IMG/VR virus record: IMGVR_UViG_3300042888_001941
Span: 1 to 64,000 of that record
Direction: 5' to 3' (one strand)
Origin: a virus
DNA length: 64,000 nt
Of this stretch, positions 4,284 to 27,327 are shown in pieces. The translations under genes and the position numbers were made by a program. The notes beneath the pieces were generated by a model. It had not been told where the DNA came from. It did not search any database and saw nothing but the letters and a program-made list of their open reading frames with translations. The first letter of the stretch is position 1. The number at the start of each line of letters is the position of its first letter.

Positions 4284-4289
4284 TTCGTC

Positions 4290-7200
4290 TTACCTCTTCC
4301 AGTAGTTTCTCTTCATTGATTTTGCAAGCGCGTCATTCTCGGCTGTGCCTGGTGTCGCGATTCGTGCAAGACGTTCTTTCATCGCATCCTTGAATGCATT
4401 GTAGCTTCCCCACTTCTCAATGATGGCGGCAAGCTCTTCACCTTTAGGCTGGAACAAAGGATTATCAAGATTGGTGATAAGCTTGTCTACCTGGTTTAAG
4501 AACATCTCTTTAGTGCGTGCTTCTCCAGCAGTATCTATAAGTCTAGGGATAGCTGATTGGTACACGTCTCCAGCTGATGGCCAGTTTCTTCCCAAGAAGG
4601 AAGCTATGCTGTCATCGTCTGTGTCAATGTTGATAAGGCCATGATCAATTGGGAATATTCTCAACTTGTTAGTGGCGTTATCAAACGCGACCATCCAGTT
4701 TGCATCATGACGGTCTTCAGAGTCTCCGAGCATATCTATAATTGCCATGCTAAGAATATCCTCAGGATTACTTAACATGTCAACAAAAGTTCCATTGTTT
4801 CCAAAGAATCTGTTTCCAGCCTCTGGATTTACTACTCCGTCGTAGAACATCTTTTCTGCGTTAACAGGAGATGCGCTAATAGGTAGTGTAGCCCCAGCTT
4901 CGGACATGATAAACACGTCTAGGTTCTCACGAGATGCGCGAACATCTGGAATACCGTGAAGACCAAGAGCGTTAAGTACAACGTTAGCCTCAACCTCGCT
5001 GGTTAGTCCTCGTACGCCATTCCACTCTCTAGAAAGATTCTCTTCCTTGACAAAGAATACTTGTCCGCTTTGCTTATGAATAACTTTGAACGTTGTGTTC
5101 TGTCCACTTTCATACTTACCTAGTGGAGTTGCTGTAAACCCAGCAGCTTGCAGCGCTTCTGAGTTGTCCAAGAAGTCGTCTACCGAGAAGTCAGTGAGTG
5201 CCTCGCCAATTCCTCCAAACGGATCTGCAAAGTCATAGTCTGCACGGTACTCTGCGTCAAGCCCTGTGCGTAGACGGAACAAATCGTCCATAGGCATCTT
5301 GCTATCTTTATCAAGAAGCTGCTTTGAGACGTATGAGTTAAGAGCTGCCTTAGCCGCAGGAGACAAGAAGCCGAGAGGGCGATTGTTTCTTAGCGCGTCG
5401 CGAATTGCTTCCATATGAGGACCAAGCTCTGGGTTATCAGCCTGGAATGCATTGTCCATAACTTGAGCAAGAGCGTTAGCACTCATATTTGGCTTATTTT
5501 GTCCAGCCTTGATGCGGCGCTCAGCGTTCTTAATTTGATTGTAGTTAACTGCTTGCTTCTGCTCGCGCGCATCTGGAGTTAGATGCTTAACACCGTCCCA
5601 CGGCTTTTGTATGAGAACTTCTTTTCCTAGCCAATTTTCTGCACCTGGGTACCAACCAACAAGCGCTACCTCAAGAGGAGTAGGAAGACTATTAAGATCT
5701 CCTCCACTAGCTGCAAGCTTTTGATTTAGCTTTTCAACAAGAGCTTTTTCTTCTGGTGTTCTCGCCCTACGCTTAAGAAGGCCTATCACGTCTGCAGCGA
5801 TGTACTGGTCTTGCCAGTTAAATCCGTTTAGTGCCCAGACAAACGCGCCTTGCCAGCTTCCTCCTCCTGCAGCAAATACCTTTACCTTTTCAATTCCATT
5901 AGCAATGTACCAGTTTTCCATGTAACGGTTGTAGGCGCTAGCAAATCCTTTTTTCTTGTTTCCTCCAGCAATTCTAAGAATTTCGTTCTTTACTGTAGCT
6001 TCATACGTTTTATTGCCCTGCGCATCAGTCGTAACTTCAATGCTCATGCTGCGAGTGCCGTCTCCGACTTCTCGACCATTTTTTTCAACAAGAAACCCTA
6101 TAGACAAAGAGTATCTTTCTTTTCCAGATTGACGTTCTTGAGCATCACTTCTTACATAAGATCTTACGCTTGTAGCATTTATTGAAAAACCTTCAGACCC
6201 AAAAGAAACGCCTTGGCGGGATCCAAAAATATCCTTAACAATTTCATTTAACGCTTTGTCTGCGTTAATTTTAGCTTGCACATCTCTAGAGTCTGAGGCG
6301 TCAGCGACTGCTTTTAGAGCTGCAGCCAACGACTCAAAAGAAGCTCTTGTTGTGGCAGCCTTAGCAATTTCTGCATCTCTGTCGCCCCACGCAGAGAAAT
6401 CAGACTGCACTACGCCTTCTTGAACAAGAGGCTTGATGTTATCTGGAATTTCACTTGTGTCGTTAATTCCCCACGCTGCTCCTGAGCGGGCAACGTTAGG
6501 AGCTGGTCTAATTGGAGCGTCTAGACGAGATTCAACGTCTGTAGAAGGAGTGGCAGGTGATGGCGCAAGAGAACCGGAAGGCGCGGTAGCAAGAGACCCA
6601 TCAGGGTTAGACACTGCCTTAATCTGATTTGCAGAGCGTACAGCAACCTTGCCATCATCAAACTTAATACGTACATACTCTGGATCATTCTGAATACTTA
6701 CGACTGTTCCACGCTTGCCATCACGATTAGCGGTGACAATTGAACCTGCGCCAACTACAGAACCGTCTGATGCGAGCGTAGTGTTATTGACTGAGTATCC
6801 AGCTTCACGAGCACCTGGGTAGACGAAAGTAGACGCAGGAGCTTCTGTTGCTGGCGCAGCAGGAGCTGGCGCAGCGGGAGCTGGAGTTGCATTAGGGGAA
6901 CGAAGTGCAACCTCTTGACGAATTGCTTGCGCTACTCCTTCAGGCAGTTCTGTCCAGCCGTACGCTCTTCCTCCAGGGCTTAAAAACCAATCAGCGTCGG
7001 ATTCAAGACTTACTGCCCCACCATTAGGGTGAATCGAAATTACTTTTGCATCTTCAAGGTCAGTTTCCGCAGTTTGAACGAGCAGTATGCCATTGTTAGG
7101 GTTGTACGCAATAAACTTAACATCTGGAGACATTCCATTGCTGAATATTCCAACTAGTGCGTTAGCAGCGTCATCCAGCATGAGAACAGTCTGTGGTGAC

Positions 7201-10200
7201 GTTGAAGGGTCTTCTTCATTGATGTCTGCAAGCGCGTCTGAGAACGGAGCAAATTCAACTGAGCTGCCTGGTGCTGCTTCTGTTGCAGGAGCTGGAGGTT
7301 CTTCTGGGTTAAGAAGTCTAATGTCTGGATCTGGCGCATCAACAAGAGATGAATCAAGTCCTGCAGCATCTACTGCGTCGCCATCAAGAACTTCTCCATT
7401 AACGTCTGTGTAAAGACCTTTTTGTGCGTCCCAACGAATGTCCTCACGGGAAAGACGCTTAATAGCTTCTTCTTCTGACATGTCATTTGACTCATCACGA
7501 AGATTAAATAGAATTTCGTTGGTGTTAATATTTAGAAGTTGTAACGCATCACGAAGCGCTTCTGCCGGCACTTCAGCTACTCCAGCATCTCCTCCAAAAT
7601 CTAGAAGAGCTACACCAGAACCATCGGTAATTGCATCAAGCATCTGGTCAATAAGATCTGCTGGATTATAGTCTGCAGCTAGTATTCTAGGATTGTCAGT
7701 ATAACCATTTTCATCAATGTCTGGGACTGACGGGATGTATGGATCTGTGTCCATGTCAAAGTAGTCTGGATTGTCATAGTCAACAGGAACGTTCTCTATG
7801 AGAGATCCAGTAATCTTCTTCTCTGACTCACTTCTTTTATACGCGGGTGACTCGTCGTCAGGGTCTGCTTCCTTAATCTGACGAATCTCGTCAGTCATGT
7901 CCTCAATAAGTTGAACATCCTCAGGAGATGATACGCCTCCTTGAGCGTCAAGAAGTTTACGCACGTTGTTGCGGTTACCGTTAACTGCATCGTACGCATT
8001 GGCGATGACACGGTTAGGGTCTCCACCGGCCTCGTAGACTGCGTTGTAAAGAGCCTCGGCCAGCACAAACTCTTCTCCAGCGTTGAACTCGAGAGCTCCA
8101 CTGCCTGTGCCACTAACTTCTCCTGCGCGACGCGCTGGTGCATTAGTTACATCTTCAAGATCTGCAAGATCTGGGAGATCATCGTCGTCTCCTACGTTTG
8201 CATCAAGGATGTCCTGCATTGCATCATCGTTAGGACGGCCAATCAACGCTTGTGTAAACGCAGCAACAAGATCACTGAGGCTGAACTTTGTTGCAAGGCG
8301 CCGTGGGTCATCTGTAAAGTCTGTTGACTCTTCATCGATGCGACCTTCTGGCTCATATTCTGTGGTGCGAAGTTGGTATGCCCCAGCAGGCTTATCGAAA
8401 TCTCCGAATAGAGCAGGAGATCCTGGTGTGCTAGGGCTTGGTGCTTTTGGGAGTGTGCCTCCACCTGGTGACGGCGGTTCGTCTGGGCCGGAACCAGTAA
8501 TATCTTGAAGAGCTTCTTCCCAGTCTTCTTGCGTGCTGAGTCTTGACATAAGAATACCATCTTCGTTACTGTCAGGCCCATCGCCAATTAGTTTCCTTGC
8601 AAGTTCTTCAGACACTGTCTTTTCTGGGAATGTAAAACGAACAACACGCTCGTCACCAAAAGCTAAGCCCGTCTGTTGCGGACTTAGATCTACGTAGATT
8701 CCTAAATCGTTTGCCTGGTCAACAATGTGCTGCATTATTGTTTTTTCGTCGTCCCAAAGATCATCCATCTCCGCTAAAATAATGTCATATTCTTTTCCAT
8801 CTGGTTTTTCAATAGAGTTAGTTGAACCCCAGATTCCACGTGACGTGTCTACTGGCCCTGAGCCAGAAGGTGGTTCGCCTGGGCCGCCTACCTTGTCTAC
8901 TCCGTCTCCAAGATTTTCATCAAGATCTAAACCGTAGGCTTCATTAAATGCATCTTTAGCATCTGTAGGTATGTCAAATGTTACTCGCTTAGTAAGCCCA
9001 TCTTCGCTAGTACTTACTACCTTGACACCGAGCTTATCAAGACCTTTACCTTCTAGCCACTTAGCAAGCGCTTCTTGCTCAGTCATCTCTGTTGGGTCTT
9101 CATCTTCAAGCCCTGGAATGTCCTCGAACATGTCGCTTGAACCTAATGTTTCAAAGTCAACTGTGTAGCGTTCGCCTGGGCCTGAGCTACCTTTTGCTTC
9201 TTCAATCATTCCATCATCGATAAGATCTTGGAACGTTACACCTTCTTCAAAGTCACCATACGCTTTGACAAAATCAGCTTTAGCATCTTCAGGGATTTCC
9301 AAGACAGACTCTGGTCCGCCATATCCATCTGTAAGTAACTTAACTTTGACACGTCCGTCAAGACTATTAGCTTTTAACCATGCATCAAGAATTTCTGAGT
9401 TTTCATAATCGCCGTCTGGGTCAAGACCGATTTGTTCAAGTGTCTCTTCATCACGGAGGGCGTCGAAATCAACTTTGTAATTCTTGCTTTCGACAGAAGT
9501 AGCATTGCCAATACCACGAAGAGCTTCGTTTACCTTTTCTGCGTATTTGTCATACTGCTCATCAGACTCCCAGTCGATACCGCCGTCGTCTTCAATGCGA
9601 CCAATAATCTTGTCGCCAGGCTCCCATCCATCTGGGTACATAACAACGTTTCCGTAATTGTCAGGTGCAAACGTTACACCCTCCATGTTGTACTCTCCAG
9701 TGCTGTCTTCACGCATTTTCTTATTAAGAGCGTCCAGCGTAGACTTGTCAATTTCAACAAAGTCTTCAGTAACGACACGAGCGTCGTATCTGTCGTCTCT
9801 AGGCTCTTGTGGGAATTCGCGTGGAGGCAAGTTCTTCTCCATGTTGCGACGAAGATCTTGTTCTGCTTTCTTAACTTGTTCAGGTGTAGTTGGCTCTGTT
9901 TGAGGAGCTGCTCCAGGTACTCTGTTTCCGTCTTCGTCAACGTAGTACATTACAGCATCTTTGTCTCTAACAATTGGGTTGTCCTTTGTAAATGTATCAT
10001 TAAGATAATCTACTAATCCTGGAACACCTTGGTTGTCAATTTCATCCCATGACTCAAAACGACGTGAAGGGCCACGGCCGTCGGTGCCTTCTGCTGGAAT
10101 CCATCCGCCTGAGTGTCCAGCAATGTACGTTCCATCGTCGTTGAGACGCGCGATGATTGGATATGTTCCACCATCACGTAATGGCATTTCACGAGTGTAT

Positions 10201-11600
10201 GACTTATCATCGTTAGCATCACGAGTCCAAGCATTAGGGACTACGTTTCCGTTAAGGTCCTTATCGCTTAGTGGGCGAGGTGCAGGACGCTGTGCGTCAA
10301 ACTTCTTGTTCTCTTCAGCACGCTGCTGCTGAGTCCTAGCAATATCTTTAAAGTCAACAACATCTTCTTCAGTAGCTCCAGGAATTCTTGCAAGAGGAAG
10401 CTCGCCGCTTTCTTCTTCAAGGCGAGCAATCTCCTTGTCAAACTCTGGCTGATCCTTTTCAATAAGCGCATTAGCCTCGGCCCAGTTGCGAGCATTTCCA
10501 ACTGTGCCTGCTGGGCGTCCGTCCGCATTGAGACGTGTAACAGATTGTGGTTGACCGTTTGGTCCAGGGATAACTGCGTAGTTATCGTCTGATACATAGT
10601 AAGGACCTTGCTTCTTCCAACCAATTGGTAGTTCTTTGCGAGCGCCAGATAGGTCTGAAACTGAAGGGATGTCCTGGTCAAACTGATCTTTAAATGATGG
10701 CTCCTCTGGAGCTTCCATTCCTGGAATACGTGCTTGGTACACTGCGGCATTGCTACTGCTAACTGGGTACAGTCCAGGTTGAAGTCCAGGTACTCCTGAA
10801 ACTTCAATAAGACCAAATTCAGATGTTAATGATGTACCTGTTGCTGTGCGCTCTACAATACTGTTTGAGCCAGCGCCGACGTAGTTACCACGGGCAACTT
10901 GAATTGAGCCATCAGGCAAACGGAAGCGGAAGTTAATGCCGCGACCCATTTCAACCCACTGGCCAAAACGGTCACGCCACTGTAAAGCAACACGTGCTCT
11001 GCGAGCTGCAGAAGAGTTACCACTGCTAAACGCTGCTGTGATAGCAGTTACGTCATCAATCTTAAAGTACGCAGGGACCGCAGACGCCTGTAATGAGCGA
11101 AGGCGTAGAAACGCGTGCTCACGCTCGATAGACTCAGGCGGAAGCGAGTGGGCCATAGCAACAAGAGGGCGAGCCTCATCTGAGATTGCAGGGTCAGCCG
11201 CAATCCACTCTGCGTACTTCTTGCGAAGGTCCTCACTGGTTAGTGACGCATTAAGAGGAGACAGCGGGTGTCCCTTTGGAAGAAGGTCCGCATGCTTAGT
11301 GCTAACACTTGCAAGAAGAGTCTTTTGATTCAAACTAATAAACTTTGTGACCTCGCGTAGAACTCCGTGATTGCGAGACTCTTCTGGGAGTGATGCAAGC
11401 TCCTTCATCGCGCGAGCCATAACAATCAACGCAGCGCGTGGTGTTACATGACGCTCAGGTAGTGCTGTCTCATTGGCTGCGTGAACAAGCGAAAGGACCT
11501 GGTCGTTAAGAGCCTTTTCGCTCTTAGCCTTTGCCTTTGCTGACTGCGCAACCTTACGATTAGAGTTGCGGTCAATCATTCTGTTGATTGGTGAGTCCAT
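4290..11600 (-). CDS. Giant acidic head-module protein (2436 aa) with GNAT-like and C-terminal HipA/PI3-PI4-kinase-like domains
   Basis: Kinase-like motifs FFVKEE, SEVEAN, EDRHDANW, IFPIDHG. GNAT-like NEILRI..KKKGFASAY..GIEKVKVFA..GAFVWALNGF. SH3-like segment and internal repeats. Lies between portal and protease. Confidence 0.75.
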   Translation of the reverse strand: MDSPINRMIDRNSNRKVAQSAKAKAKSEKALNDQVLSLVHAANETALPERHVTPRAALIVMARAMKELASLPEESRNHGVLREVTKFISLNQKTLLASVSTKHADLLPKGHPLSPLNASLTSEDLRKKYAEWIAADPAISDEARPLVAMAHSLPPESIEREHAFLRLRSLQASAVPAYFKIDDVTAITAAFSSGNSSAARRARVALQWRDRFGQWVEMGRGINFRFRLPDGSIQVARGNYVGAGSNSIVERTATGTSLTSEFGLIEVSGVPGLQPGLYPVSSSNAAVYQARIPGMEAPEEPSFKDQFDQDIPSVSDLSGARKELPIGWKKQGPYYVSDDNYAVIPGPNGQPQSVTRLNADGRPAGTVGNARNWAEANALIEKDQPEFDKEIARLEEESGELPLARIPGATEEDVVDFKDIARTQQQRAEENKKFDAQRPAPRPLSDKDLNGNVVPNAWTRDANDDKSYTREMPLRDGGTYPIIARLNDDGTYIAGHSGGWIPAEGTDGRGPSRRFESWDEIDNQGVPGLVDYLNDTFTKDNPIVRDKDAVMYYVDEDGNRVPGAAPQTEPTTPEQVKKAEQDLRRNMEKNLPPREFPQEPRDDRYDARVVTEDFVEIDKSTLDALNKKMREDSTGEYNMEGVTFAPDNYGNVVMYPDGWEPGDKIIGRIEDDGGIDWESDEQYDKYAEKVNEALRGIGNATSVESKNYKVDFDALRDEETLEQIGLDPDGDYENSEILDAWLKANSLDGRVKVKLLTDGYGGPESVLEIPEDAKADFVKAYGDFEEGVTFQDLIDDGMIEEAKGSSGPGERYTVDFETLGSSDMFEDIPGLEDEDPTEMTEQEALAKWLEGKGLDKLGVKVVSTSEDGLTKRVTFDIPTDAKDAFNEAYGLDLDENLGDGVDKVGGPGEPPSGSGPVDTSRGIWGSTNSIEKPDGKEYDIILAEMDDLWDDEKTIMQHIVDQANDLGIYVDLSPQQTGLAFGDERVVRFTFPEKTVSEELARKLIGDGPDSNEDGILMSRLSTQEDWEEALQDITGSGPDEPPSPGGGTLPKAPSPSTPGSPALFGDFDKPAGAYQLRTTEYEPEGRIDEESTDFTDDPRRLATKFSLSDLVAAFTQALIGRPNDDAMQDILDANVGDDDDLPDLADLEDVTNAPARRAGEVSGTGSGALEFNAGEEFVLAEALYNAVYEAGGDPNRVIANAYDAVNGNRNNVRKLLDAQGGVSSPEDVQLIEDMTDEIRQIKEADPDDESPAYKRSESEKKITGSLIENVPVDYDNPDYFDMDTDPYIPSVPDIDENGYTDNPRILAADYNPADLIDQMLDAITDGSGVALLDFGGDAGVAEVPAEALRDALQLLNINTNEILFNLRDESNDMSEEEAIKRLSREDIRWDAQKGLYTDVNGEVLDGDAVDAAGLDSSLVDAPDPDIRLLNPEEPPAPATEAAPGSSVEFAPFSDALADINEEDPSTSPQTVLMLDDAANALVGIFSNGMSPDVKFIAYNPNNGILLVQTAETDLEDAKVISIHPNGGAVSLESDADWFLSPGGRAYGWTELPEGVAQAIRQEVALRSPNATPAPAAPAPAAPATEAPASTFVYPGAREAGYSVNNTTLASDGSVVGAGSIVTANRDGKRGTVVSIQNDPEYVRIKFDDGKVAVRSANQIKAVSNPDGSLATAPSGSLAPSPATPSTDVESRLDAPIRPAPNVARSGAAWGINDTSEIPDNIKPLVQEGVVQSDFSAWGDRDAEIAKAATTRASFESLAAALKAVADASDSRDVQAKINADKALNEIVKDIFGSRQGVSFGSEGFSINATSVRSYVRSDAQERQSGKERYSLSIGFLVEKNGREVGDGTRSMSIEVTTDAQGNKTYEATVKNEILRIAGGNKKKGFASAYNRYMENWYIANGIEKVKVFAAGGGSWQGAFVWALNGFNWQDQYIAADVIGLLKRRARTPEEKALVEKLNQKLAASGGDLNSLPTPLEVALVGWYPGAENWLGKEVLIQKPWDGVKHLTPDAREQKQAVNYNQIKNAERRIKAGQNKPNMSANALAQVMDNAFQADNPELGPHMEAIRDALRNNRPLGFLSPAAKAALNSYVSKQLLDKDSKMPMDDLFRLRTGLDAEYRADYDFADPFGGIGEALTDFSVDDFLDNSEALQAAGFTATPLGKYESGQNTTFKVIHKQSGQVFFVKEENLSREWNGVRGLTSEVEANVVLNALGLHGIPDVRASRENLDVFIMSEAGATLPISASPVNAEKMFYDGVVNPEAGNRFFGNNGTFVDMLSNPEDILSMAIIDMLGDSEDRHDANWMVAFDNATNKLRIFPIDHGLINIDTDDDSIASFLGRNWPSAGDVYQSAIPRLIDTAGEARTKEMFLNQVDKLITNLDNPLFQPKGEELAAIIEKWGSYNAFKDAMKERLARIATPGTAENDALAKSMKRNYWKR

Positions 11601-11602
11601 GG

Positions 11603-13429: not shown

Positions 13430-13431
13430 CC

Positions 13432-15180: not shown

Positions 15181-15218
15181 GCTATACTCCTCGTCTTTGG
15201 TTAACGGAGCGCTTAGAG

Positions 15219-15557
15219 TTAATCATCTAAACGCGCGGTTAGAAGGCTGGATACTGCCGATAGGGCAAATATACACCCGATTAGCAAAGTCATAGTTGGA
15301 AAAGCAGCATAAAAAAGTACGACTGGAAGCGCAACCCACATGGACACGCACCACTCGCAAGTAAAGAGGAATCCTAGGTAGCTTGTCTCTGGTGGAAACT
15401 TTTCCCAGAACGCATTACGGAGCGGGGCAAGAACTTCATCCTTAATGATAAGTCGGGTGATTCTAAACACCGCGAGTGCTAAGATGATGAAGTTGATAGC
15501 GGACATCACCTGGAAGTGTTCAAATGGATTGAAGGTGGTCATTTCGGTTAGTGTCAT
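15219..15557 (-). CDS. DUF1360-like membrane protein
   Basis: LALAVFRITRLI..D..LR..LG.LFTC.WC.S.W pattern. Start set at MTLTE, overlapping the upstream stop. Confidence 0.7.
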   Translation of the reverse strand: MTLTEMTTFNPFEHFQVMSAINFIILALAVFRITRLIIKDEVLAPLRNAFWEKFPPETSYLGFLFTCEWCVSMWVALPVVLFYAAFPTMTLLIGCIFALSAVSSLLTARLDD

Positions 15558-15946
15558 GTTGTTGGGTCCTTTACTGAGTCCATCGTTTGGTACGGGCTCC
15601 AGGAGCGAAGGCGTGAGCCGCAATTGCACCCTTTAACGTACTTAAACGCGATGATCTTGCCGGAGCGGGTAAGCGCCTGCGAGTCATCTGATTTATTCCC
15701 AGACCAGTTTAGGTCTTGGAGTCTTTCAGAGAAGATTAGCCGCGGTCCCGTGTGGTGGTCTGCCGCGACTAATAGAACTGAGGATTCGTCGTCCTCTAGG
15801 ACAACAAGGCGTACTTTCTCGAGATAACGAGCGCCAGTATGGATCTTAGAACAAGAGGAAGAGACAAGAACACTTTTGAAGTCATCGGTGATGTCGGGAG
15901 GGACAACCGTGATGTTAGCGGGAAACAGGTCGTGACGTACTCTCAT
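15554..15946 (-). CDS. Hypothetical protein
   Basis: 130 aa; 4-bp overlaps with both neighbours; C-terminal GCNCGSRLRSW. Confidence 0.65.
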   Translation of the reverse strand: MRVRHDLFPANITVVPPDITDDFKSVLVSSSCSKIHTGARYLEKVRLVVLEDDESSVLLVAADHHTGPRLIFSERLQDLNWSGNKSDDSQALTRSGKIIAFKYVKGCNCGSRLRSWSPYQTMDSVKDPTT

Positions 15947-16431
15947 TGAATTGCCTTATCTACACGACGTTTCATCGCGCGATAGGTAACCCCTGACGCA
16001 CGGGCAAGCTCGGACACTGTAACACCCTTAAGAAAGAGCTCTCCTGCTATTACGGTTAATTCATTATTCGCGGTGAAAGAAGCAGACGTGACGGTTGTTC
16101 GTGAGCGGTAACGCCGAGCAAGAGGCGACAGCCGCGCAATGCGCAACTGCTCATCATGTGGAATACCTGGGCTCTTTGGACGTTGTCTTACAGAGCGAGG
16201 CTTCTTCACAGGAGGCGTAGGGGTCGCGGTGATAAACTCGTGGCGAGTGACTTCTTTAATAACCCAGGAGCGAATCGTGCTTCGTCTGCGCGGCGGGTTA
16301 AACGCATCAGCAATAGACTGCAATGTCCAGCCAGCCTCGTGTAGATCTTGGACGCGGCTCCACAATTGATCCTTCACAAGCGTGGCAAGGAACTCTTGCT
16401 CACTCTTTGGAAGATCGGGTGTATGCGCCAT
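15943..16431 (-). CDS. Tandem HTH DNA-binding protein (paralog 1)
   Basis: GWTLQSIADA and GVTVSELARASGVTYRAM. Leaderless start with TATAGT 6 nt upstream. Confidence 0.7.
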   Translation of the reverse strand: MAHTPDLPKSEQEFLATLVKDQLWSRVQDLHEAGWTLQSIADAFNPPRRRSTIRSWVIKEVTRHEFITATPTPPVKKPRSVRQRPKSPGIPHDEQLRIARLSPLARRYRSRTTVTSASFTANNELTVIAGELFLKGVTVSELARASGVTYRAMKRRVDKAIQ

Positions 16432-16669
16432 AGTGAAACTATATCATCTTCGAAGACGTTTATGTACAAATTGCGGTGATAAGATGATGTACAATTCGAA
16501 GAATCGGTACCTTAAGGTTAAGTGCCTTGGACGTGAGAATGGGTAGCTGTATACGAGAGGCGCTTTCCAATGTGTCTCGAGCGTTTTTTCTACATAATAT
16601 ATTTTTTCTACTTTGCAGGAAAATAAAAGAAGACCACCTGCTATGAGGTGGCCTTCTTTCTTTAAGAAT

Positions 16670-17110
16670 TTATACGATTGGATTTACGTTTGGATCTCCA
16701 GCAAAGATAGCTAGGAATGTATCAGTGTCTACTGACTTGTCAGTGACGCCCATTCCTCTGTCCTGTTGGAACGCGTTAACTGACATCATGGTGAGTTCAC
16801 CTAGCCAGCCATCACGATCTCCAACAACATCCTTATAGCCAAGCTCTTCAAGGCGACGTTGTAGATGATGAATGGTTAGAGACTTGCGCTCGAACTTATT
16901 CTCATATACACACTTGCTAAGAAGGACTTCATCCACGTCGCCAGTAACTGCAGCGTTAGCTACAGGCATTGGCGCAGGTGGCTCTACAGGAGCTGGTACT
17001 GGTTCAGGTTGAGGCTCAGGCTCTGCAACAGGCGTAGGTTCTTCTACTACTACCGCAGGTACTTCCTCTACCGTAACCGCAGGGGTTTCGATGTTTTCAA
17101 TATCTTCCAT
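16670..17110 (-). CDS. Peptidoglycan-binding-domain protein with Pro/Glu-rich N-terminus
   Basis: LQRRLEELGY..DG.LG..T..SV.AFQ...G PGBD pattern. Confidence 0.7.
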   Translation of the reverse strand: MEDIENIETPAVTVEEVPAVVVEEPTPVAEPEPQPEPVPAPVEPPAPMPVANAAVTGDVDEVLLSKCVYENKFERKSLTIHHLQRRLEELGYKDVVGDRDGWLGELTMMSVNAFQQDRGMGVTDKSVDTDTFLAIFAGDPNVNPIV

Positions 17111-17125
17111 AGGCTTATCTTAATC

Positions 17126-17707
17126 CTAATCTTTTGTTGTTGACTTAGGGAATTTCTTTTCCCATTTGGTAATGAGATGCTCACCCGGAGTTCCATCGTA
17201 AGCATTAGGCCCTAAGCCCCATGATGACCAGTCCGTACCGCCTCGTGTCATGTAGTGCACAATCTGAACGTTAGTAACTGGGTCGAACAGATCCGTATGC
17301 TTTAGTACACCGAACTTCTCATTAAATAGAGCAAGACGGTCTTTGCCTAAGCTACCGATCATGTTAATTTGGAAAATACCGTATGAGTTATCACCGGTGC
17401 TTACCGTATCGTTGTGAGCTACTGGACGGCCGTTAGATTCCTTCATGGCGACAGCCCAGGCAGTCCGCAAGGACTTGCCCTTGAAGCCTACCGTAGACAT
17501 GAGCTCGATGAGCTCGTCATTGGTAAGCGTCTTTGCGCCTCTGAACTTGTCCAGAGGATCTACTACCTTTACCGCTTTAGCTTTAGCTACCGCGGGTTTT
17601 GTTTGGGTTGCATTAGCAGCTGTAGTAGCTACCGCAGCAACTCCGATTGTTAGAGCCGTAATATAGGCTACGGTCGACATTGCTATGGCACGTGTTGTGA
17701 TTTGCAA
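17126..17707 (-). CDS. Secreted lytic transglycosylase/lysozyme-like protein
   Basis: Signal peptide; AVAMKESNG (catalytic Glu), SYGIFQIN, LFDPVTN, DWSSW; SD AAGGAGG upstream. Confidence 0.8.
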   Translation of the reverse strand: MQITTRAIAMSTVAYITALTIGVAAVATTAANATQTKPAVAKAKAVKVVDPLDKFRGAKTLTNDELIELMSTVGFKGKSLRTAWAVAMKESNGRPVAHNDTVSTGDNSYGIFQINMIGSLGKDRLALFNEKFGVLKHTDLFDPVTNVQIVHYMTRGGTDWSSWGLGPNAYDGTPGEHLITKWEKKFPKSTTKD

Positions 17708-17950
17708 CGCTAGTTCGCCTCCTTAGGTCGGGGATGGGACAACCCAATGCTGACTGCTCATTGAGCTTCTTGCTACCGCTATGCTCCTCAGACTTTAGTC
17801 TGTCCTCTACCGCTTGCATAGGGCCGGAGATAAGAAGGGATAACATTGTTAGTCCTCCGTCTCTCCGTAGTAGGTTTGTACCTGGTGATAACTATACCAT
17901 AGTTAAAATGAAACAGGCACCCGTAGGTGCCTGTCCCACTGTAATTTGTG

Positions 17951-18121
17951 TTACTCCTTCATAGAGAGGAGCGCCGTTGACACTGAGGCTAAGCCTAGGG
18001 CCATGATTAGTTCCCCGTTCTCTGGGGCAGTGAGCGCCGTAATAACGGCAAGTATCGCTAGGCCTAAGGAAGATAGAGCTAGCCAGGCGACCTCACGTAG
18101 GTAATTTAGGATATTACCCAT
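17951..18121 (-). CDS. Small two-TM membrane protein (56 aa)
   Basis: My translation: MGNILNYLREVAWLALSSLGLAILAVITAL...; fills the gap below the ORF-track cutoff. Confidence 0.55.
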   Translation of the reverse strand: MGNILNYLREVAWLALSSLGLAILAVITALTAPENGELIMALGLASVSTALLSMKE

Positions 18122-18123
18122 TG

Positions 18124-18303
18124 TTACTTAGCCTTACGGGTTTTACCCTTAAGTCTATCGGAGGTATTGCGGATAGGTGTCCCTGAGTCCGCGATGAGCT
18201 TACGAGCCTTACCGTAGGTAATTCCTAGCTCCTGTGCTACCTCGACTACTGATTTACCTGCTGTATAAAGTGATGCTGCTTGTACTGGTGTCGCTGTTGA
18301 CAT
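18124..18303 (-). CDS. Small HTH protein (59 aa)
   Basis: My translation: LYTAGKSVVEVAQELGITYGKARKLI..SG.PIR; SD GAGAGG. Confidence 0.7.
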   Translation of the reverse strand: MSTATPVQAASLYTAGKSVVEVAQELGITYGKARKLIADSGTPIRNTSDRLKGKTRKAK

Positions 18304-18398
18304 CGGTATTCCTCTCTTCGTTGTTTGATTTGTGCTGGTAGTTCTAAGCTAGTGAGCGCACAATCGACTCACCCGCTTCTGTAAGCAGATGGTACTGC

Positions 18399-18857
18399 TT
18401 AAGATTTAGTGGCCTTTTCAAGCTTTGGTGGAGTTTTGCCATGTACGCCGCAAAGCGACTTTCCACCCCAGGCTCCACGAGGTTTGATGTTGTCATCGCA
18501 CTCGGTGCCGTAGTTGTGAAGATAGCATTGAACTCTTGGCTGCATGTTTGGTAGAGAATTGGTAAGAGCCACAAGTGCTCGCTTGAACACGGTGGTCTTT
18601 ACCTGAAGTGCACCGTCTGCGTTATGGCATGAAATGCATAGGTACTCATTACGTCTGTGGGCTGGATCTCTTACTGCCTTATCAGCTCCACATTTGTCGC
18701 AAGCCTGAGTCCATTTAACACCGCGGACAAGTGTGCGGTAGTCAGTAGCGCATACGAGTGTGTCGTTATGTGCGTAAAGTAAGACGTCTACTTCACCGCA
18801 GATAGGGCAGACCCCACGAACGTACTGTTGCTCACGCTGATTTGTTCCTTGCGTCAT
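18399..18857 (-). CDS. Multi-CxxC zinc-finger protein
   Basis: CPIC, CDKC, CISC, CGVH; SD GGAGG. Confidence 0.6.
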   Translation of the reverse strand: MTQGTNQREQQYVRGVCPICGEVDVLLYAHNDTLVCATDYRTLVRGVKWTQACDKCGADKAVRDPAHRRNEYLCISCHNADGALQVKTTVFKRALVALTNSLPNMQPRVQCYLHNYGTECDDNIKPRGAWGGKSLCGVHGKTPPKLEKATKS

Positions 18858-18908
18858 TTATCCTCCGGTTCGGGTAGACTATAATCCTTCTACCTTTACT
18901 TGTAAAAT

Positions 18909-19184
18909 TTAGTTCTTGGGTCCCACGACACCAAGAAGAGTTGTTGGCTTCTTCCGCGCACGGAGCTTTGCGAACTCTTCCTTTGCGATGTGTTCAGTGT
19001 GACGTGACACAATCCAGAGTGGGAGAACGCCCGCAACTACAAGAAATGTAGCGGCAAGGAAAGCAGAGATGCTTGGGAAGATGAAGAATGTGTGAGCTGC
19101 GTACGGAACCCAGGCAAGAGCTAGGAGACGTAGGGCAACCGTATAGCGACGGTATCTAAATCCTCTAAAGTTGTTAATTTTCAT
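18909..19184 (-). CDS. Two-TM membrane protein
   Basis: Start reset to MKINN behind the repeated ACGACGAAAGGA SD. Confidence 0.6.
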   Translation of the reverse strand: MKINNFRGFRYRRYTVALRLLALAWVPYAAHTFFIFPSISAFLAATFLVVAGVLPLWIVSRHTEHIAKEEFAKLRARKKPTTLLGVVGPKN

Positions 19185-19243
19185 TTTCGGTCCTTTCGTC
19201 GTTGTTAGGATAATTATAGCAGGATAATCAGGAAAAGTAAACC

Positions 19244-19813
19244 TTAGCACCCGAATGCCTTGCGGCAGTCAGGTCCTAGGAAGAAGGCTCGGCTGGTTGG
19301 ATCTGTGAGCTCGGCGCCACACTTTCCGCAGCAGGCGTAGTGCTCACCGAAGAGGCGAGCGTACTTATATGGATGTGAGGCAATGATGTCCGTAACGATG
19401 ATAACATCACCGGCAGGCATCTTGTCTCGGTTGAATCCACCTACTGAGCCAGTGAGGCGGCGCATGAAGAGCGTGTTCTCGTACTCACGAATCTCAACGA
19501 AGAGTAGGTCACCCGTAAGAGGTGTGTCCTGGAGTGGAGCGATGTCTAGCTCGTCCACAGGGATTGCGTACTTAGACTTAGGTACGCGTGAAAGGCAGCG
19601 CTGAAGAGCTGATGTTGGCTCGGCTAGCTTAGGCAAGCCAAGCAGCATAGAGATTACCGCGGAGGCTGAACGCTTAGTAATGGTGCTAAGCGCAGTGAAG
19701 CGGTCATCGACAAATTGCTGGATGATTGGGTCACCCGCAGGGAGCTCGCGTGAATCGAGGAGCTCGTTGATAAAGGTAATTTGCTTATCGCTTGCTGGGA
19801 ACGTAGTAGTCAT
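19244..19813 (-). CDS. DUF6011-like zinc-finger protein
   Basis: C-terminal CGKCGAELTDPTSRA..LGPDC; start MTTTF by ATGA overlap. Confidence 0.7.
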   Translation of the reverse strand: MTTTFPASDKQITFINELLDSRELPAGDPIIQQFVDDRFTALSTITKRSASAVISMLLGLPKLAEPTSALQRCLSRVPKSKYAIPVDELDIAPLQDTPLTGDLLFVEIREYENTLFMRRLTGSVGGFNRDKMPAGDVIIVTDIIASHPYKYARLFGEHYACCGKCGAELTDPTSRAFFLGPDCRKAFGC

Positions 19814-19983
19814 GGACGAACTCCCCACCACTTAAGCCCACCGGTGTGAGCAACTGAACCTTCGTAGGTAACTGCCCATGAGGCAGCCTCGCCGTAGCTG
19901 GCGCATGTCTGAAATACTGGAGCCATTCCGTGGAATGTATACATGTAGACTGTTTGGTTTCCAGCCTCGTATCCTTTTGTCAT
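19810..19983 (-). CDS. Hypothetical protein (57 aa)
   Basis: My translation MTKGYEAGNQ...KWWGVRP; follows the promoter copy at 20011. Confidence 0.5.
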   Translation of the reverse strand: MTKGYEAGNQTVYMYTFHGMAPVFQTCASYGEAASWAVTYEGSVAHTGGLKWWGVRP

Positions 19984-20039
19984 TTGGGTTCCAATCCGTT
20001 TGTTATGGTTAATTATAACAGGTAAATTGGGAAAATGGC

Positions 20040-21434
20040 CTATCTGACCTTAAATGTTCCTCCGCCTCGGAAGCTAGGCATACGTCTAGCCGCAGGGCTC
20101 TTAGCCTTAATGGTTCCGCCAACGAAACCGGCAGGTGGCTTGATGAGGAGAGCTGTGAGGGCGTGGACCAGGGCGTCTACTCGGTCTGGGGATTTGCCTT
20201 CGCCTGGAATCCAAGCGCACATCTGGGACTCGAGGTCGCCTAGATAGCCAACGTGGTGGACACGGTTCTGCTCGTAGGCAAGCGTGATTGGCTCGGCGCG
20301 AAGTGCCTTGCCGTATTTGGAGTGAACCTCAAGGACCTTTACAGTTGGGTCAATTGTGTTAATGGCGTTTCTTACCAAGGCACCACCTTGGTTTACTTCG
20401 GCTACCACAGGGCAACCCCACTTGCGAGCCATTTGCACTACCTTGTTAGCCCAGACCTCCGGTGAACCGTGAATGGAGGCGTCCTCAAGTACCCAGCTCT
20501 GACGCTTGTAAAGATCTCGGTCACCGGTAGAAGCTACGACGACTATGCCGCATTCATCTCGAGGGTTCTCGGCTACAGATGGGTCAACGCCAATGCACCG
20601 CAAAGGTGTGCCCATTGGCAACTGCATCTCTCGGCCACGGTCGATGAGCTCCTGTGTCCAGAGAGCTCCTTCAACATCTGAAAGCATCTCACCGTAGAGC
20701 TCTTGCGCAGCCAAGCGAGTTCCTTCGTACACTCCAACGATTGCATCGATGTAAGCTTGAGAAAGGTTTCCGCTGTTGTCCAGTGTAGAACCTTTTGTAA
20801 TAACTACCTTGCCAGTCTTCTCAGCTTCGGCGATGAGCTGGTAGAGAAGCGGCACACGCTTAGGAGTTGTCGTAATCATAATTTTTGGATTCGCGCCAAG
20901 ACGAGTGCCAACGCGTAAGTTGTCAAAGGCTGTCATGCCAGCTGCATCAGGCGTTTGCCTCCATGCAGCAACTTCATCTCCCCAGGCGTGCGTGAACTGA
21001 GGTCCACGAAGGGAGTCTGGCTCGTCAGCTGTGAAGCATGTTGCCGTATTGCCGTTAGGCCAAGTTAGTCTTCGTTTGGACGGTTCGTATAAAGGGCGTT
21101 CGCTTGGCGGAGTTACGTTAATAATTCCAGACTCGCCTTCAACGATAACGTCACGTACGTCAGCGGCAGTACGAGCTACCAACGCGAAACGGCGCTGGCC
21201 AGTTGTTGTGTACTTAGCTTCTTCACGCACCCACTCGGCTGCCGTACGAGTTTTGCCAGCTCCGCGACCAGCGATGTAAGCCCAGATGTTCCAATCGCCT
21301 GGTGGAGCTTGCTGCTCTGGGCGTCCCCACACAGACCAGTCCCAGAGGAGATTGTCTGGATCAAAACCCGCAAGGATTTCATTGCGCTGCTCCTCAGGGA
21401 GATGCGCAAGCTGTTCCATCAAACTTTTAGCCAT
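20040..21434 (-). CDS. terL: Terminase large subunit
   Basis: Walker A AGRGAGKT, LRGPQF..AW.DE, ITTTP, nuclease GVDP, AEVNQGG, SPDRVDA. Confidence 0.95.
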   Translation of the reverse strand: MAKSLMEQLAHLPEEQRNEILAGFDPDNLLWDWSVWGRPEQQAPPGDWNIWAYIAGRGAGKTRTAAEWVREEAKYTTTGQRRFALVARTAADVRDVIVEGESGIINVTPPSERPLYEPSKRRLTWPNGNTATCFTADEPDSLRGPQFTHAWGDEVAAWRQTPDAAGMTAFDNLRVGTRLGANPKIMITTTPKRVPLLYQLIAEAEKTGKVVITKGSTLDNSGNLSQAYIDAIVGVYEGTRLAAQELYGEMLSDVEGALWTQELIDRGREMQLPMGTPLRCIGVDPSVAENPRDECGIVVVASTGDRDLYKRQSWVLEDASIHGSPEVWANKVVQMARKWGCPVVAEVNQGGALVRNAINTIDPTVKVLEVHSKYGKALRAEPITLAYEQNRVHHVGYLGDLESQMCAWIPGEGKSPDRVDALVHALTALLIKPPAGFVGGTIKAKSPAARRMPSFRGGGTFKVR

Positions 21435-21451
21435 GTGTACTATAGTACATT

Positions 21452-21491
21452 AAAAAGAAAAAGACTAGGCGGGTGAATGCCTAGTCTTTTT
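21452..21491. terminator. Intrinsic terminator, possibly bidirectional
   Basis: AAAAAGACTAGGC-8nt-GCCTAGTCTTTTT hairpin with A and T tails. Confidence 0.8.
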
Positions 21492-21572
21492 CCCCAGAAA
21501 GGAGTCTCGAGCAAATGGATTGGAGTACATTCGCGAGACCCTCAGTTAGGAAATGCAATAACCTAACCGAGT
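21452..21572 (-). ncRNA. Candidate ~120-nt three-hairpin small RNA
   Basis: Extended -10 at 21578-21589; stems 21541-50/21562-71 and 21504-09/21534-39; then the terminator. Confidence 0.5.
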
Positions 21573-21584
21573 AAGATAATTATA

Positions 21585-22514
21585 TCACGCAAATATGGAA
21601 ACTTCGTCATGAATCTTCGAGACCGTAGTTGCCCATACCGCAGGTGTGTGGTCAAATGGTTGATACCCACCGGCACCGCCAATGAGAACACGACCTTCCG
21701 AATATGCAGAGGCAATACGCCCAACAGTTGCAGCCGCATCTTCATATCCTGGATAATCGAACTGGAGAGTTGATAATGGATCTGTCTTATGAGCATCAGC
21801 TCCAGCAGCAACTAAAACAACATCTGGCTTTATCTTGTCAGCAAGTTGCTCGATTTCTCCCATAGCTCTACGAAACTCATCATCACCGCTTGCCGGATCC
21901 AATGCCCAGTTATAGACACCTAGCTCAGGGAAGTGCCCCTTTAGTCCAGTGCCTGGGAAGATTACCGAATCGTGAATGCTACAAGTTACCGCATCTCTGT
22001 TACCCGTAAGTAAGTTCTCAACGCCATCACCATGATGAGCATCCCAGTCGATGTACATGACCTTCATGCCGTTTTTGTTGAATTCACGTGCAGCCCAAGC
22101 CATATCGTTGAATACACAGAAACCAGACGAGTGATTGTACTGCGCATGATGCTTAGCTCCCTGAGGATTAAAGCCAACCTTTAGCTCGCCAGCTAGCATC
22201 TTCTCAGTAAGACGAACAGTGCCCGCAAACATATGAAGAGCTACTTGCCCCATGTGCTTATTGTCTGGACTCCATTGCCCGCTATGCCCACGGTCAAGTA
22301 CATCAGCTACGTAGTACGCATCATGAATAGACTCAACACGCTCTCTGTCTCCCGCAACAATATCTGGAGAAACAAGAACGATGTCCTTGTCTTCTTTTAG
22401 AAGTTCGGTGGCGTACTTAGCTCTTACTGGATTAGTTGGGTGCGAATCTCCTTCGCTGCCAAGCTTCCAGTCTAAATAGATGTCGCCGTATGCGACGTGT
22501 AGCTTATTTTTCAT
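21585..22514 (-). CDS. Zn-dependent deacetylase, histone deacetylase/AcuC family
   Basis: HP.NP.R, HHA, SGFCVFND, IDWDAHHGDG, SIH, FPGTG, GADAH..DPL, GGY. Start reset to MKNKL. Confidence 0.92.
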   Translation of the reverse strand: MKNKLHVAYGDIYLDWKLGSEGDSHPTNPVRAKYATELLKEDKDIVLVSPDIVAGDRERVESIHDAYYVADVLDRGHSGQWSPDNKHMGQVALHMFAGTVRLTEKMLAGELKVGFNPQGAKHHAQYNHSSGFCVFNDMAWAAREFNKNGMKVMYIDWDAHHGDGVENLLTGNRDAVTCSIHDSVIFPGTGLKGHFPELGVYNWALDPASGDDEFRRAMGEIEQLADKIKPDVVLVAAGADAHKTDPLSTLQFDYPGYEDAAATVGRIASAYSEGRVLIGGAGGYQPFDHTPAVWATTVSKIHDEVSIFA

Positions 22515-23016
22515 TTGTAGTTGCGTCCTTAGCATGTAGGTAGTCAACGAAGTCGTCGTTGAGCAGTACGGCATTAGATCTCTTGTCCCGCATCAGCTGA
22601 ATCGCATCAGCAGAAGAGTATCCTTCAAGCATGAGGGCAAGACCCATCGTTAAGCTAGAACGGTTAATCCCAGCTTGACAACGAATCAATACTCGCTTGC
22701 CAGATTTCCAAGCGGCATGTGCAAATGCAGCTGCCTCATGGAGAGAAGCGTAATCCGCATTGCCTTCAAGACCTGAGTCGTAGAAGCCATAACGAAGTTC
22801 TTGCACAAACCAGTCAACTGGATTTGCCCAAGCGTAAAGAGTTACTACCGTATCAAAATCATCTTTAGTGATAGCACGAGATCCATGAATGTTTGCTGCA
22901 TCCTCAATCGTGTCATCGTCGTCTGTTCCACCAAGAAATAATCCTGGGAGTATCTCACTCCATAGGGGGAAGTCCCAGTCGATGTTGTGAACTGGTGCGT
23001 ATGAAGCATTAGCCAT
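22504..23016 (-). CDS. Dual-specificity/tyrosine protein phosphatase
   Basis: SEILPGLFLGG; CX5R loop VLIRCQAGINRS; overlaps the deacetylase start. Confidence 0.9.
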   Translation of the reverse strand: MANASYAPVHNIDWDFPLWSEILPGLFLGGTDDDDTIEDAANIHGSRAITKDDFDTVVTLYAWANPVDWFVQELRYGFYDSGLEGNADYASLHEAAAFAHAAWKSGKRVLIRCQAGINRSSLTMGLALMLEGYSSADAIQLMRDKRSNAVLLNDDFVDYLHAKDATTNEK

Positions 23017-23018
23017 TA

Positions 23019-23237
23019 TTACCCTCCGGTCATCTCTAACCAGCACTTAGGATGCGTGCCAGAAATCATTTGTTCACGAATTGCAATGTCTAGCTCAGGG
23101 AATGCCTCTTGAATCAGCATACCGAAGTTCCATTGAAGGAAGCCCACGGCTGGAACTTCGACAACGCCTTGCTCGCCGCACATGCCGCAAACTGGAGTTT
23201 CGACCAGGTAGGTTTCATTTGTAAGGTCTGTTGACAT
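23019..23237 (-). CDS. Small zinc-binding protein
   Basis: CGMC..IQEAFP.L..REQMISG.HP.CW; first gene after the promoter at 23267. Confidence 0.65.
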   Translation of the reverse strand: MSTDLTNETYLVETPVCGMCGEQGVVEVPAVGFLQWNFGMLIQEAFPELDIAIREQMISGTHPKCWLEMTGG

Positions 23238-23299
23238 TTTCTCGTCCTTTCGTCGTTTGTTATATCTATTATATCAGGTAATGTTACCTGCGAGTACCA

Positions 23300-23866
23300 C
23301 TACTCTTCTTGTATGTACGTATGAATCTCTCCACCGGAGTAGATGTCATGCTTGCAAGCTATCTCGATAGCTCGCCGCAAAACCTTTTCGGCAGCCTCAG
23401 GAGTCTTAACCTTTTGGAAGTGAAGAGCTTCGAGAGCTCCAAGAGCTAAGTCTCCACCACTGCCGGAGTAGTAAACGTTCCTAGCTTCTCTATCCCAGCT
23501 GTAATCATTAAAAATTGGATACAGAACTCCACGAACCGAAACAATTAAGTTCGAATCGTGCCAAGCTGCATCACCGTCTTCTTTTCCTTCAAAGCCAGCA
23601 TCAACGAAAGCTTTACGAAGTGACGGTATAAACTTCTTTGTCATAAAAACGTCTAGGTCTTCACTACGAGTAGGAGTTGGAGGTTTCCAACCGAACTGAG
23701 CAATGTTGCCACCACGTGATGCGCCAGACACTGCAATGAGAACTCCATTGTTGTCTACGATTTTGTGAGTCGCAAGGTCCATGAAACGACCGTCCTCATC
23801 AGATGCTCGTGAATCACAGCCGATGACTGACCAGCCATCCCCTTGAATTGCCGCAAGCGTAGTCAT
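23300..23866 (-). CDS. Proteasome beta/HslV-like Ntn threonine protease
   Basis: N-terminal M-T-T, DSR, KI, GSGG..A.G.L, DIYSGG. Confidence 0.85.
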   Translation of the reverse strand: MTTLAAIQGDGWSVIGCDSRASDEDGRFMDLATHKIVDNNGVLIAVSGASRGGNIAQFGWKPPTPTRSEDLDVFMTKKFIPSLRKAFVDAGFEGKEDGDAAWHDSNLIVSVRGVLYPIFNDYSWDREARNVYYSGSGGDLALGALEALHFQKVKTPEAAEKVLRRAIEIACKHDIYSGGEIHTYIQEE

Positions 23867-23931
23867 GATTCTCCCTAGATGTTTCCCAAGCGCCTAGGAA
23901 AACTGTATCCTAAGCGCCTGGGTTACGTCTA

Positions 23932-24264: not shown

Positions 24265-24301
24265 CCTACTTCCTTTCGTCGTTAGGATAATTATATCAGG
24301 T

Positions 24302-24547: not shown

Positions 24548-24559
24548 TGGTTTTCCTTC

Positions 24560-25139: not shown

Positions 25140-25174
25140 GGTAGTCCTTTCGTCATTAAGTAAATTATATCAGG

Positions 25175-25399: not shown

Positions 25400-25478
25400 G
25401 ACTCTCCTTTGTTAGAACGAAACTATCATACTTACAGAGAGAAGACCAGAGCGGGAATCCGCCCTGGCCTCTCTGCAA

Positions 25479-27326: not shown

Positions 27327-27327
27327 T

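Follow-up and report, generated by a model that had tools for sequence, protein, structure and literature searches.

Phosphatase and deacetylase genes co-vary with the kinase and GNAT-like domains of a giant head-module protein in a lineage of related phages

The window analyzed here comprises the first 64 kb (positions 1 to 64,000) of the IMG/VR virus record IMGVR_UViG_3300042888_001941, which spans 136,434 bp and is complete by CheckV. On its minus strand, the window encodes a giant head-module protein of 2436 amino acids (aa; 4290–11600) with a C-terminal GNAT-fold acetyltransferase-like domain (5559–6242) and an atypical protein-kinase-like domain (4293–5210), as well as an overlapping pair of genes for a dual-specificity phosphatase (DSP; 22504–23016) and an HDAC-family deacetylase (21585–22514). 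We refer to the two domains as writers and to the two separately encoded enzymes as erasers. Among related phages, DSP is present exactly where the kinase domain is present and HDAC exactly where the GNAT-like domain is present, with concordance in 27 of 27 records for either pair. This pattern suggests that DSP is functionally tied to the kinase and HDAC to the GNAT-like domain, and we lean towards the reading that the phage counteracts its two cargo enzymes with DSP and HDAC, which would remove the same marks.

Co-occurrence of writers and erasers in related phages

IMG/VR was searched with the kinase, HDAC, and DSP and subsequently with the portal protein as anchors, and whole records were scored for the four features. 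The portal scan matched at least 599 stretches, of which the best 80 were retained; 595 of the stretches code for a portal relative. For loci with a single eraser, the writers were scored in 8 records of the 14 DSP-only loci and in 4 of the 5 HDAC-only loci. Only records with both regions on the contig enter the count of 27; G008, G017, G042, G043, G048, G053, G054, G055, G056, and G057, in which a region is off the contig or uncovered, are excluded, as are all short fragments.

Both domains together with both erasers occur in 13 records, the window included. Seven records encode the kinase without the GNAT-like domain, and these possess DSP, while HDAC is found nowhere on the record. Three records show the reverse arrangement, namely the GNAT-like domain without the kinase and HDAC without DSP. 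One of them (G049) has terminal repeats, and in these GNAT-only genomes the domain again forms the C-terminus of the post-portal protein. None of the four features is present in the remaining four records (DSL-LC01, G058, G059, and G060), where the absence of DSP was scored for G058 and G060 by tblastn beside positive records and for G059 by a profile search without positive control. All four possible combinations are thus seen, each of them concordant. The earlier note on this DNA, made from the window's letters, had conceived the four activities as a matched set and named co-occurrence of kinase with phosphatase and of GNAT with deacetylase across relatives as a check, and within the lineage this pairing holds in all 27 records that could be scored.

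The transitions between these classes touch two separate sites that lie 10–16 kb apart. As judged from gene positions, linkage does not explain the co-variation, because the changes hit two distant sites while the portal gene and, in the window's own clade, also the gene for the large terminase TerL are retained between them. In a portal tree of 32 rows, each trait undergoes at least three changes, all of which fall on coinciding branches, the deep branches of the tree being weak.

In a genome-wide control, 159 genes of the window's genome were compared with 10 whole records, among which 128 of the 159 vary. The exact presence vector of the kinase is matched by 2 of the 159 genes, DSP and an open reading frame (ORF) of 87 aa (25811–26074, minus strand; no Pfam family), and the exact vector of the GNAT-like domain by a single one (1/159), which is HDAC. 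The strength of this control rests on the exact per-record match and not on the class-level pattern. Being the only other gene whose vector across the ten whole relatives equals those of the kinase and DSP, the 87-aa ORF may constitute a third partner of the kinase/phosphatase pair.

Predicted activities of the writer domains and the erasers

The giant protein is composed of a conserved N-terminal region, an acidic repeat-rich middle, and the C-terminal module of GNAT-like and kinase domains. Its last 696 aa are conserved over their full length in 57 of 61 large homologues, down to 37% identity. Used as a query, this segment yielded 452 matches at E ≤ 0.001 in a representative library, and among the 150 matches listed many cover the GNAT-like part alone. 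In PHROGs, a family was found neither for the giant protein nor for HDAC, and an ESM Atlas search with the N-terminal 470 aa returned no usable match. That the protein ends in a GNAT-like domain and a kinase, as the earlier note had claimed, is borne out by the conserved catalytic residues of the kinase and by structure prediction for both domains, which gave a GNAT and a protein-kinase-like fold, respectively.

The kinase domain (residues 2131–2436) was modeled by AlphaFold2 (AF2) with a mean predicted local distance difference test score (pLDDT) of 94.6. Foldseek assigned the model a probability of 1.00, with 66 matches at E ≤ 0.001, and in VIA comparisons Z ranges from 13.2 to 10 across CotH, PI4KII, CtkA, HipA, Fam20, and PI3K. 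The closest structure is CotH (5jd9; Z 13.2, root-mean-square deviation (rmsd) 4.3, 255 residues aligned), followed by PI4KIIb (12.1), CtkA (11.7), and HipA (11.5) with 220–259 residues aligned. The former assignment as a HipA/PI3K-like kinase consequently stands as to the kinase-like fold, but by Z, CotH, PI4KII, and CtkA are nearer than HipA. Sequence identity to the HipA/CtkA/CotH/type II PI4-kinase relatives is 9–16%, and with either writer domain as a single-sequence query, PDB sequences were matched at chance level only. A ten-member kinase profile, in turn, matched the catalytic loops of PI4KII-beta (E 0.0012) and CtkA (E 0.019) among PDB sequences. In Pfam, the domain has no match to the HipA family (HipA_C), and PF00454 reaches 15–18.4 bits on the catalytic loop only. 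Because PF00454 stays below its cut-off of 27.1 bits, the domain is, on its model, filed at superfamily level and not as a member of HipA or PI4K.

With HipA, CtkA, CotH, and the type II PI4-kinases, the domain shares the fold, the catalytic Lys and Glu, the DRHxxN loop, and the IDHG metal-binding motif. Unlike them, it is fused to a phage head protein, and it has its own C-terminal helical extension. The K, E, DRHxxN, and IDHG elements read earlier from the window alone are conserved across 47 homologues, in which K2185, E2202, D2296-R-H-x-x-N2301, and D2319 (IDHG) are invariant or nearly so. In domain numbering, K55, E72, D166, R167, N171, and D189 are invariant in 10 diverse members and H168 nearly so, and the proteins of the kinase-only class retain every catalytic motif. 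A predicted complex between the kinase domain and DSP scored 0.00 in a run without controls, which is evidence neither for nor against binding.

The GNAT-like domain covers about residues 1787–2014 and was modeled within residues 1741–2130 (AF2 pLDDT 88.6). In a VIA search of 48,161 chains, which is not Foldseek-based, all 50 rows shown are GNAT, HAT1, or p300-type acetyltransferases, with modest Z values of 6.0–7.3 that speak to the fold level only (rmsd about 3–5, 106–159 residues aligned). Foldseek neighbours are Naa50, KKT23, AtaT, and GmvT, at probabilities of about 0.9–1.0 and E-values of 3e-3 or weaker. The GNAT-like fold proposed before for positions of about 5815–6100 is thereby upheld, but the domain proves wider (5559–6242). 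In Pfam, the window domain has no GNAT match. PF00583 is matched weakly by 9 of 20 family members (best E 3.5e-4), and a profile of the family finds the GNAT protein 2aj6 in the PDB (E 0.0072). GNAT motif A (Q/R-x-x-G-x-G/A) binds the pyrophosphate of coenzyme A. In the corresponding stretch, the family consensus reads QGxGFA and the window and its close relatives have KKKGFA, which retains Gly and Ala but has Lys in place of Gln/Arg. The domain further possesses a conserved C-terminal extension, PTPxExAxxGWxPGAxxWxGK.

Judging from domain composition, the GNAT-like domain travels with polymorphic-toxin-like architectures, because in a 485-aa protein (P0129) it is followed by an ADP-ribosyltransferase toxin domain (PF03496), and a 4097-aa Mycobacterium protein named toxin glutamine deamidase (P0064), which carries PF00583, has a match to the C-terminal module that spans 18% of the protein (E 3.2e-10).

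HDAC is a class-II-like, Zn-dependent deacetylase of 309 aa, counted from ATG 22514, which matches PF00850 at 1.5e-52 (179 bits versus a cut-off of 27.9). Its nearest solved relatives are the HDAC6 catalytic domains (3e-33), bacterial HDAH, and a lysine deacylase. The motifs HH, DWDAHHGDG, GADAHKTDP, and GGAGGY align with the catalytic motifs of HDAC6 and HDAH and presumably provide the His-His dyad, the Asp-His-Asp zinc ligands, and the catalytic Tyr. DSP is a DUSP-like, Cys-based CX5R phosphatase of 170 aa (PF00782 at 5.3e-10, 39.7 bits versus a cut-off of 33.5; phrog_10650 at 5.9e-17). Its nearest solved relative is DUSP10, in which LIHCQAGVSRS aligns with LIRCQAGINRS of DSP and the general-acid Asp is likewise aligned, and D80, C113, and R119 are shared by all 19 relatives compared. 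As far as these residues indicate, the active sites of both DSP and HDAC are intact.

Genomic setting of the eraser pair and the giant gene

The reading frame of DSP starts at ATG 23016, which is preceded by the ribosome-binding sequence GGAGGG, and its stop codon (22504–22506) lies past the HDAC start at 22514. The start and stop positions confirm the 11-bp overlap of phosphatase and deacetylase genes reported before (ATGAAAAATAA). DSP is located directly upstream in 53 of 61 HDAC-anchored loci, with gaps between high-scoring segment pairs of -8 to +40 nt; five of these loci are without DSP and three end at the contig edge. Anchored on DSP, HDAC lies directly downstream in 27 of 41 loci and is absent there in 14. 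G048 (L115), a 19-kb fragment with the giant gene off the contig, is the sole record seen with a broken-up pair, its HDAC and DSP lying 4 kb apart on opposite strands.

An extended -10 promoter-like motif (TGATATAAT; 23268–23276, minus strand) precedes a unit that comprises a Cys-rich ORF of 72 aa (23019–23237, minus strand; no Pfam family), DSP, and HDAC. The next TGATATAAT motif (21579–21587, minus strand) overlaps the HDAC stop codon upstream of TerL. The pair can accordingly be placed under one promoter-like motif, as the earlier note had it, but the unit also holds the 72-aa ORF. This ORF was considered as a third partner and set aside, because of 41 DSP-anchored loci only 16, those of the closest relatives, have it conserved ahead of DSP. 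In total, the motif scan found 20 exact TGNTATAAT extended -10 motifs in the window versus 1.29 expected. This distribution suggests two transcription regimes in the window, because 18 of the 20 motifs crowd on the minus strand within 19213–35463 and none occurs in the structural genes at 1–19000. Relative to the giant gene, the erasers are encoded 10 kb upstream of its start, at a distance of 16–17 kb from the writer domains. A proteasome/HslV-like gene (23300–23866, minus strand; 188 aa, PF00227 at 2.1e-6) is kept just upstream of the DSP unit in most relatives.

TerL (20040–21434; PF03237 at 5.2e-21, PF17289 at 1e-8), directly downstream of HDAC, opens the head module, which continues on the minus strand with a lytic transglycosylase, a peptidoglycan-binding protein, the portal protein (13432–15180; phrog_776 at 4.6e-108), which served as tree marker, a Dps/ferritin fusion, the giant protein, a 330-aa ORF, and a protease-like ORF. 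The 608-aa Dps/ferritin fusion directly after the portal (11603–13429, minus strand) matches PF00210 at 5e-16 in its N-terminal part and also DUF5824; in the relative G050, the Dps part is a gene of its own of 152 aa. The protease-like ORF (1–3294, minus strand; at least 1098 aa) runs off the record start, and its C-terminal third matches portal/MuF-like and head maturation protease PHROGs. The record is probably circularly permuted through this ORF. In several relatives with the DSP-HDAC pair (L081–L093, L110) and in the kinase-only genome G036 (L057/L058), whose portals are 70–79% identical, no tblastn homologue of the window TerL is found beside the pair, and these phages seem to have replaced or relocated their terminase gene.

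The nearest named relative is the Actinomycetia phage DSL-LC01, whose portal is 75% identical to that of the window and which the available text of PMC10611076 describes as metagenome-assembled from a freshwater lake. The host of the window phage is likely an actinobacterium, because the closest portals come from DSL-LC01 and then from Microbacterium, Arthrobacter, and Gordonia phages. At DNA level, neither the giant gene nor the eraser pair had a match among cultured phages. The post-portal protein of DSL-LC01 (3289 aa; L055 16801–26670, OQ999401) has only the N-terminal 390 aa and the middle repeat in common with the window protein. For its remaining 2000+ residues no Pfam family was found, and it may carry different, unrecognised cargo domains.

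The packaging context of the giant gene is given by its neighbourhood only, namely its position after the portal and Dps-fusion genes and before the protease-like genes. Elsewhere, portal or MuF fusion proteins terminate in the GNAT-like domain in 3 of 10 additional relatives that were scanned, and so does the Phage_min_cap2 protein (gp5) of Microbacterium phage Jera. By analogy with these fusions and from the gene position, the giant protein would be part of the virion and be ejected.

Possible roles and relation to known systems

According to the earlier note, the virion delivers both writers at infection, and the erasers, once expressed, reset the marks or protect the producing cell. This interpretation is partly supported. 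In the mechanism that we consider the best explanation, the giant post-portal protein would be a polyvalent head cargo with a C-terminal GNAT-type acyltransferase and an atypical Ser/Thr-type kinase, which is incorporated into the capsid, reaches the next cell together with the DNA, and modifies host proteins ahead of all phage gene expression. The erasers would be transcribed from the promoter-dense region upstream of TerL and strip the same marks once these are no longer useful, thereby ending the early host-directed effect. They would also keep the producing cell functional while new writer protein accumulates before packaging. From the gene content we infer both that the erasers act on the writers' products and that host proteins are the targets of the writer module. 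In its full form, which we put forward tentatively, each injected catalytic domain would have its own phage-encoded antidote, resulting in a two-mark reversible switch on host proteins that is written at entry and erased on schedule. In a bolder variant, the substrates of the PI4KII-like kinase and the Cys-phosphatase could be phosphatidylinositol lipids, which are present in actinobacteria.

Several observations weigh against an antagonism of writers and erasers. The independent contrasts per pair number between one (supported branches) and three (best tree), all concordant, and because they are too few a sign test is unable to reach 0.05. The 27 records include many near-copies (the 32 rows contain 26 distinct portals), and the coarse class pattern, present in the both-writer and kinase-only classes and absent elsewhere, is shown by 26 of 161 query units. 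Moreover, the control genes were scored by tblastn and the writers by profile, which slightly favours the erasers. The writer and eraser genes are non-adjacent and stand in different promoter contexts, and Pfam scans found no MuF, portal, or other packaging domain in the giant protein itself. The structural neighbours of the GNAT-like domain in VIA and Foldseek include N-terminal acetyltransferases and aminoacyl-tRNA-acetylating toxins, and to our knowledge HDAC-type enzymes do not reverse N-terminal or aminoacyl-tRNA acetylation.

The few independent events and the variability of 128 of the 159 genes fit an origin of the pattern in lineage and mosaic gene content, with the four enzymes in unrelated roles. 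Under this explanation, possible functions would be those of an acetylpolyamine or small-molecule amidohydrolase for HDAC, of a phosphatase with a non-protein substrate for DSP, and of a structural head module for the GNAT-like domain. The match of the 87-aa ORF to the kinase vector, which is as good as that of DSP, agrees with such an absence of functional link, and so do the modest Z of the GNAT-like domain and its motif A, which in the window does not follow Q/RxxGxG/A. We nevertheless regard this explanation as very improbable: the exact vector matches (2/159 for the kinase and 1/159 for the GNAT-like domain) include precisely a phosphatase and a deacetylase, each transition needed two separate deletions at distant sites, and the catalytic residues are conserved in all four enzymes, apart from the Lys for Gln/Arg in motif A of the window's GNAT-like domain.

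Phages outside the lineage provide observations on both sides. An HDAC match is present in only 8 of 50,697 cultured phage records, and the GNAT-like domain is widespread without HDAC. Jera has the GNAT-like domain but neither HDAC nor DSP, and Rhodococcus phage E3 has HDAC without a GNAT-like match. Independent occurrence of erasers and writers, which the earlier note held to speak against its idea, is partly seen outside the lineage (Jera, E3) but in none of the 27 records within it. In favour of the pairing stands Microbacterium phage Magritte from an unrelated lineage, the best cultured-phage HDAC match (41% identity), which lacks DSP and the kinase and whose portal has no match to that of the window. 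Its 1991-aa post-portal protein ends in a probable divergent GNAT-like domain (hhalign 80%, E 1.4e-5), but this domain is without the QGxGFA stretch and the hhalign probability is only 80%. Four other cultured actinophages encode DSP-type phosphatases in replication-gene neighbourhoods, and this kinase was not found in them; the search had no positive control, although the profile used did match G056 in another scan. A conserved phosphatase-HDAC pair in Magritte and E3 was considered as well and dropped, the genes directly upstream of HDAC not being phosphatases. A tblastn search of the Jera GNAT-like domain against cultured phages returned Jera itself only.

The actinophage phosphatases without this kinase and the HDAC of E3 without a GNAT-like domain would be expected if each enzyme acted alone on a different substrate of the same host system and were gained and lost with host range. 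For instance, one enzyme could imitate or forestall a defence or regulatory circuit of the host that is based on a Ser/Thr kinase or on acetylation, while the other undoes it. Such a division of labour accounts for the co-variation equally well as direct reversal, and a phage kinase with broad, defence-disarming phosphorylation is in print (available text of PMC13645617). It requires, however, two host circuits, each met by two phage enzymes of opposite chemistry, and shared marks are the simpler explanation for the exact one-to-one match of opposite activities. We therefore consider different substrates unlikely.

A third explanation places both reactions in head assembly: the kinase and the GNAT-like domain would modify phage head proteins or the giant protein itself, and the erasers would complete a maturation cycle without any host target. 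CotH kinases phosphorylate spore-coat proteins, and the spore-coat kinase CotH is the best structural match of the kinase domain (Z 13.2). HipA-type kinases autophosphorylate, which also counts for this possibility, as does the location of the giant gene inside the head-morphogenesis module, and the co-variation would be accounted for equally well. In contrast, the module appears dispensable for assembly, because DSL-LC01, G058, and G060, with portals 72–75% identical, build related heads without any of the four enzymes. Further, variable C-terminal enzyme domains on head proteins are typical of ejected effectors, as set out in the available text of PMC5512222. Taken together, a role confined to assembly has a rather small probability.

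Removal of the writers' marks by cognate erasers, the reading we prefer, would extend a system that is in part familiar. Polyvalent proteins are giant multidomain proteins whose genes stand among the late genes. They are predicted to be taken up into the head and to reach the cell with the DNA, and their listed effector domains include kinases and GNATs (Iyer, Burroughs, Anand, de Souza, Aravind 2017; available text of PMC5512222). The window protein resembles them by its 2436 aa, its at least two enzyme domains, and its place in a phage head module, and likewise by effector domains that differ between relatives, with DSL-LC01 sharing the N-terminal and middle parts only. It differs in its kinase: in the available text of PMC5512222, the kinases of polyvalent proteins form a truncated Ser/Thr/Tyr-kinase clade from Verrucomicrobia, Chlamydia, and Bacteroidetes elements, whereas here a full PI4KII/CtkA/HipA-like domain is found in an actinophage. 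The window phage also differs by its eraser genes. Cognate erasers lie outside the described system, because neither "phosphatase" nor "deacetylase" occurs in the main text of PMC5512222. In the literature searched, which includes the available texts of PMC5512222 and PMC7824862 and leaves supplements and subscription journals out of scope, we found no description of a phage kinase/phosphatase or GNAT/deacetylase pairing. The earlier view that a phage-encoded two-mark switch is undescribed thus needs a qualification, as the writer half is in print (PMC5512222, available text), while the eraser pairing was not found described. The writer half adds a member to a known kind, and the co-varying eraser genes would be the new part.

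Enzymes of reverse chemistry on one genetic element have precedents in other settings. In toxin-antitoxin pairs such as DarT/DarG, the antitoxin enzymatically reverses the modification made by the toxin, and Legionella employs effector/metaeffector pairs of reverse chemistry, for example SidM/SidD and AnkX/Lem3. As in these systems, the writer and the enzyme of reverse chemistry are encoded on the same element and are gained and lost together. Unlike them, the window phage would combine phosphorylation and acetylation, each with its reversal, in two pairs per phage, the writers are domains of a head protein, and the writer and eraser genes lie 10–16 kb apart. In contrast to toxin-antitoxin operons, the eraser and writer genes are non-adjacent, with TerL, the portal, and other genes between them.

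Individual components also find counterparts among phages. Jera gp5 carries the same GNAT-like family at the C-terminus of a post-portal head protein (BLASTP 1e-11, 29% identity; profile E 2.4e-45) and scores 16.1 bits on the Pfam GNAT profile against a cut-off of 20.7. Unlike the window phage, Jera is a 41-kb phage, and its gp5 has 667 aa and no kinase. The kinase of T7 is expressed from an early gene, is not head-borne, and belongs to a different kinase lineage, and we know of no phage phosphatase that partners it. As a protein kinase that phosphorylates many host proteins early and disarms defences broadly, T7 gp0.7 is a plausible model for the window kinase (available text of PMC13645617).

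Virion-borne polyvalent proteins are predicted to be widespread phage weapons, almost none of which has a known target or a known control. A kinase that tracks with a phosphatase and a GNAT that tracks with a deacetylase provide a concrete, testable handle on such proteins: the chemistry of a writer's mark can be read from its eraser, and phages that naturally have both, either, or none of the pairs serve as ready-made genetic controls. If the proposed reversal is true, phages regulate their own injected effectors enzymatically, as intracellular pathogens do with metaeffectors, and such "enzymatic immunity" would be a new principle for virion-borne effectors. Reversible phosphorylation and acetylation of host proteins would then join the biology of freshwater actinobacterial phages.

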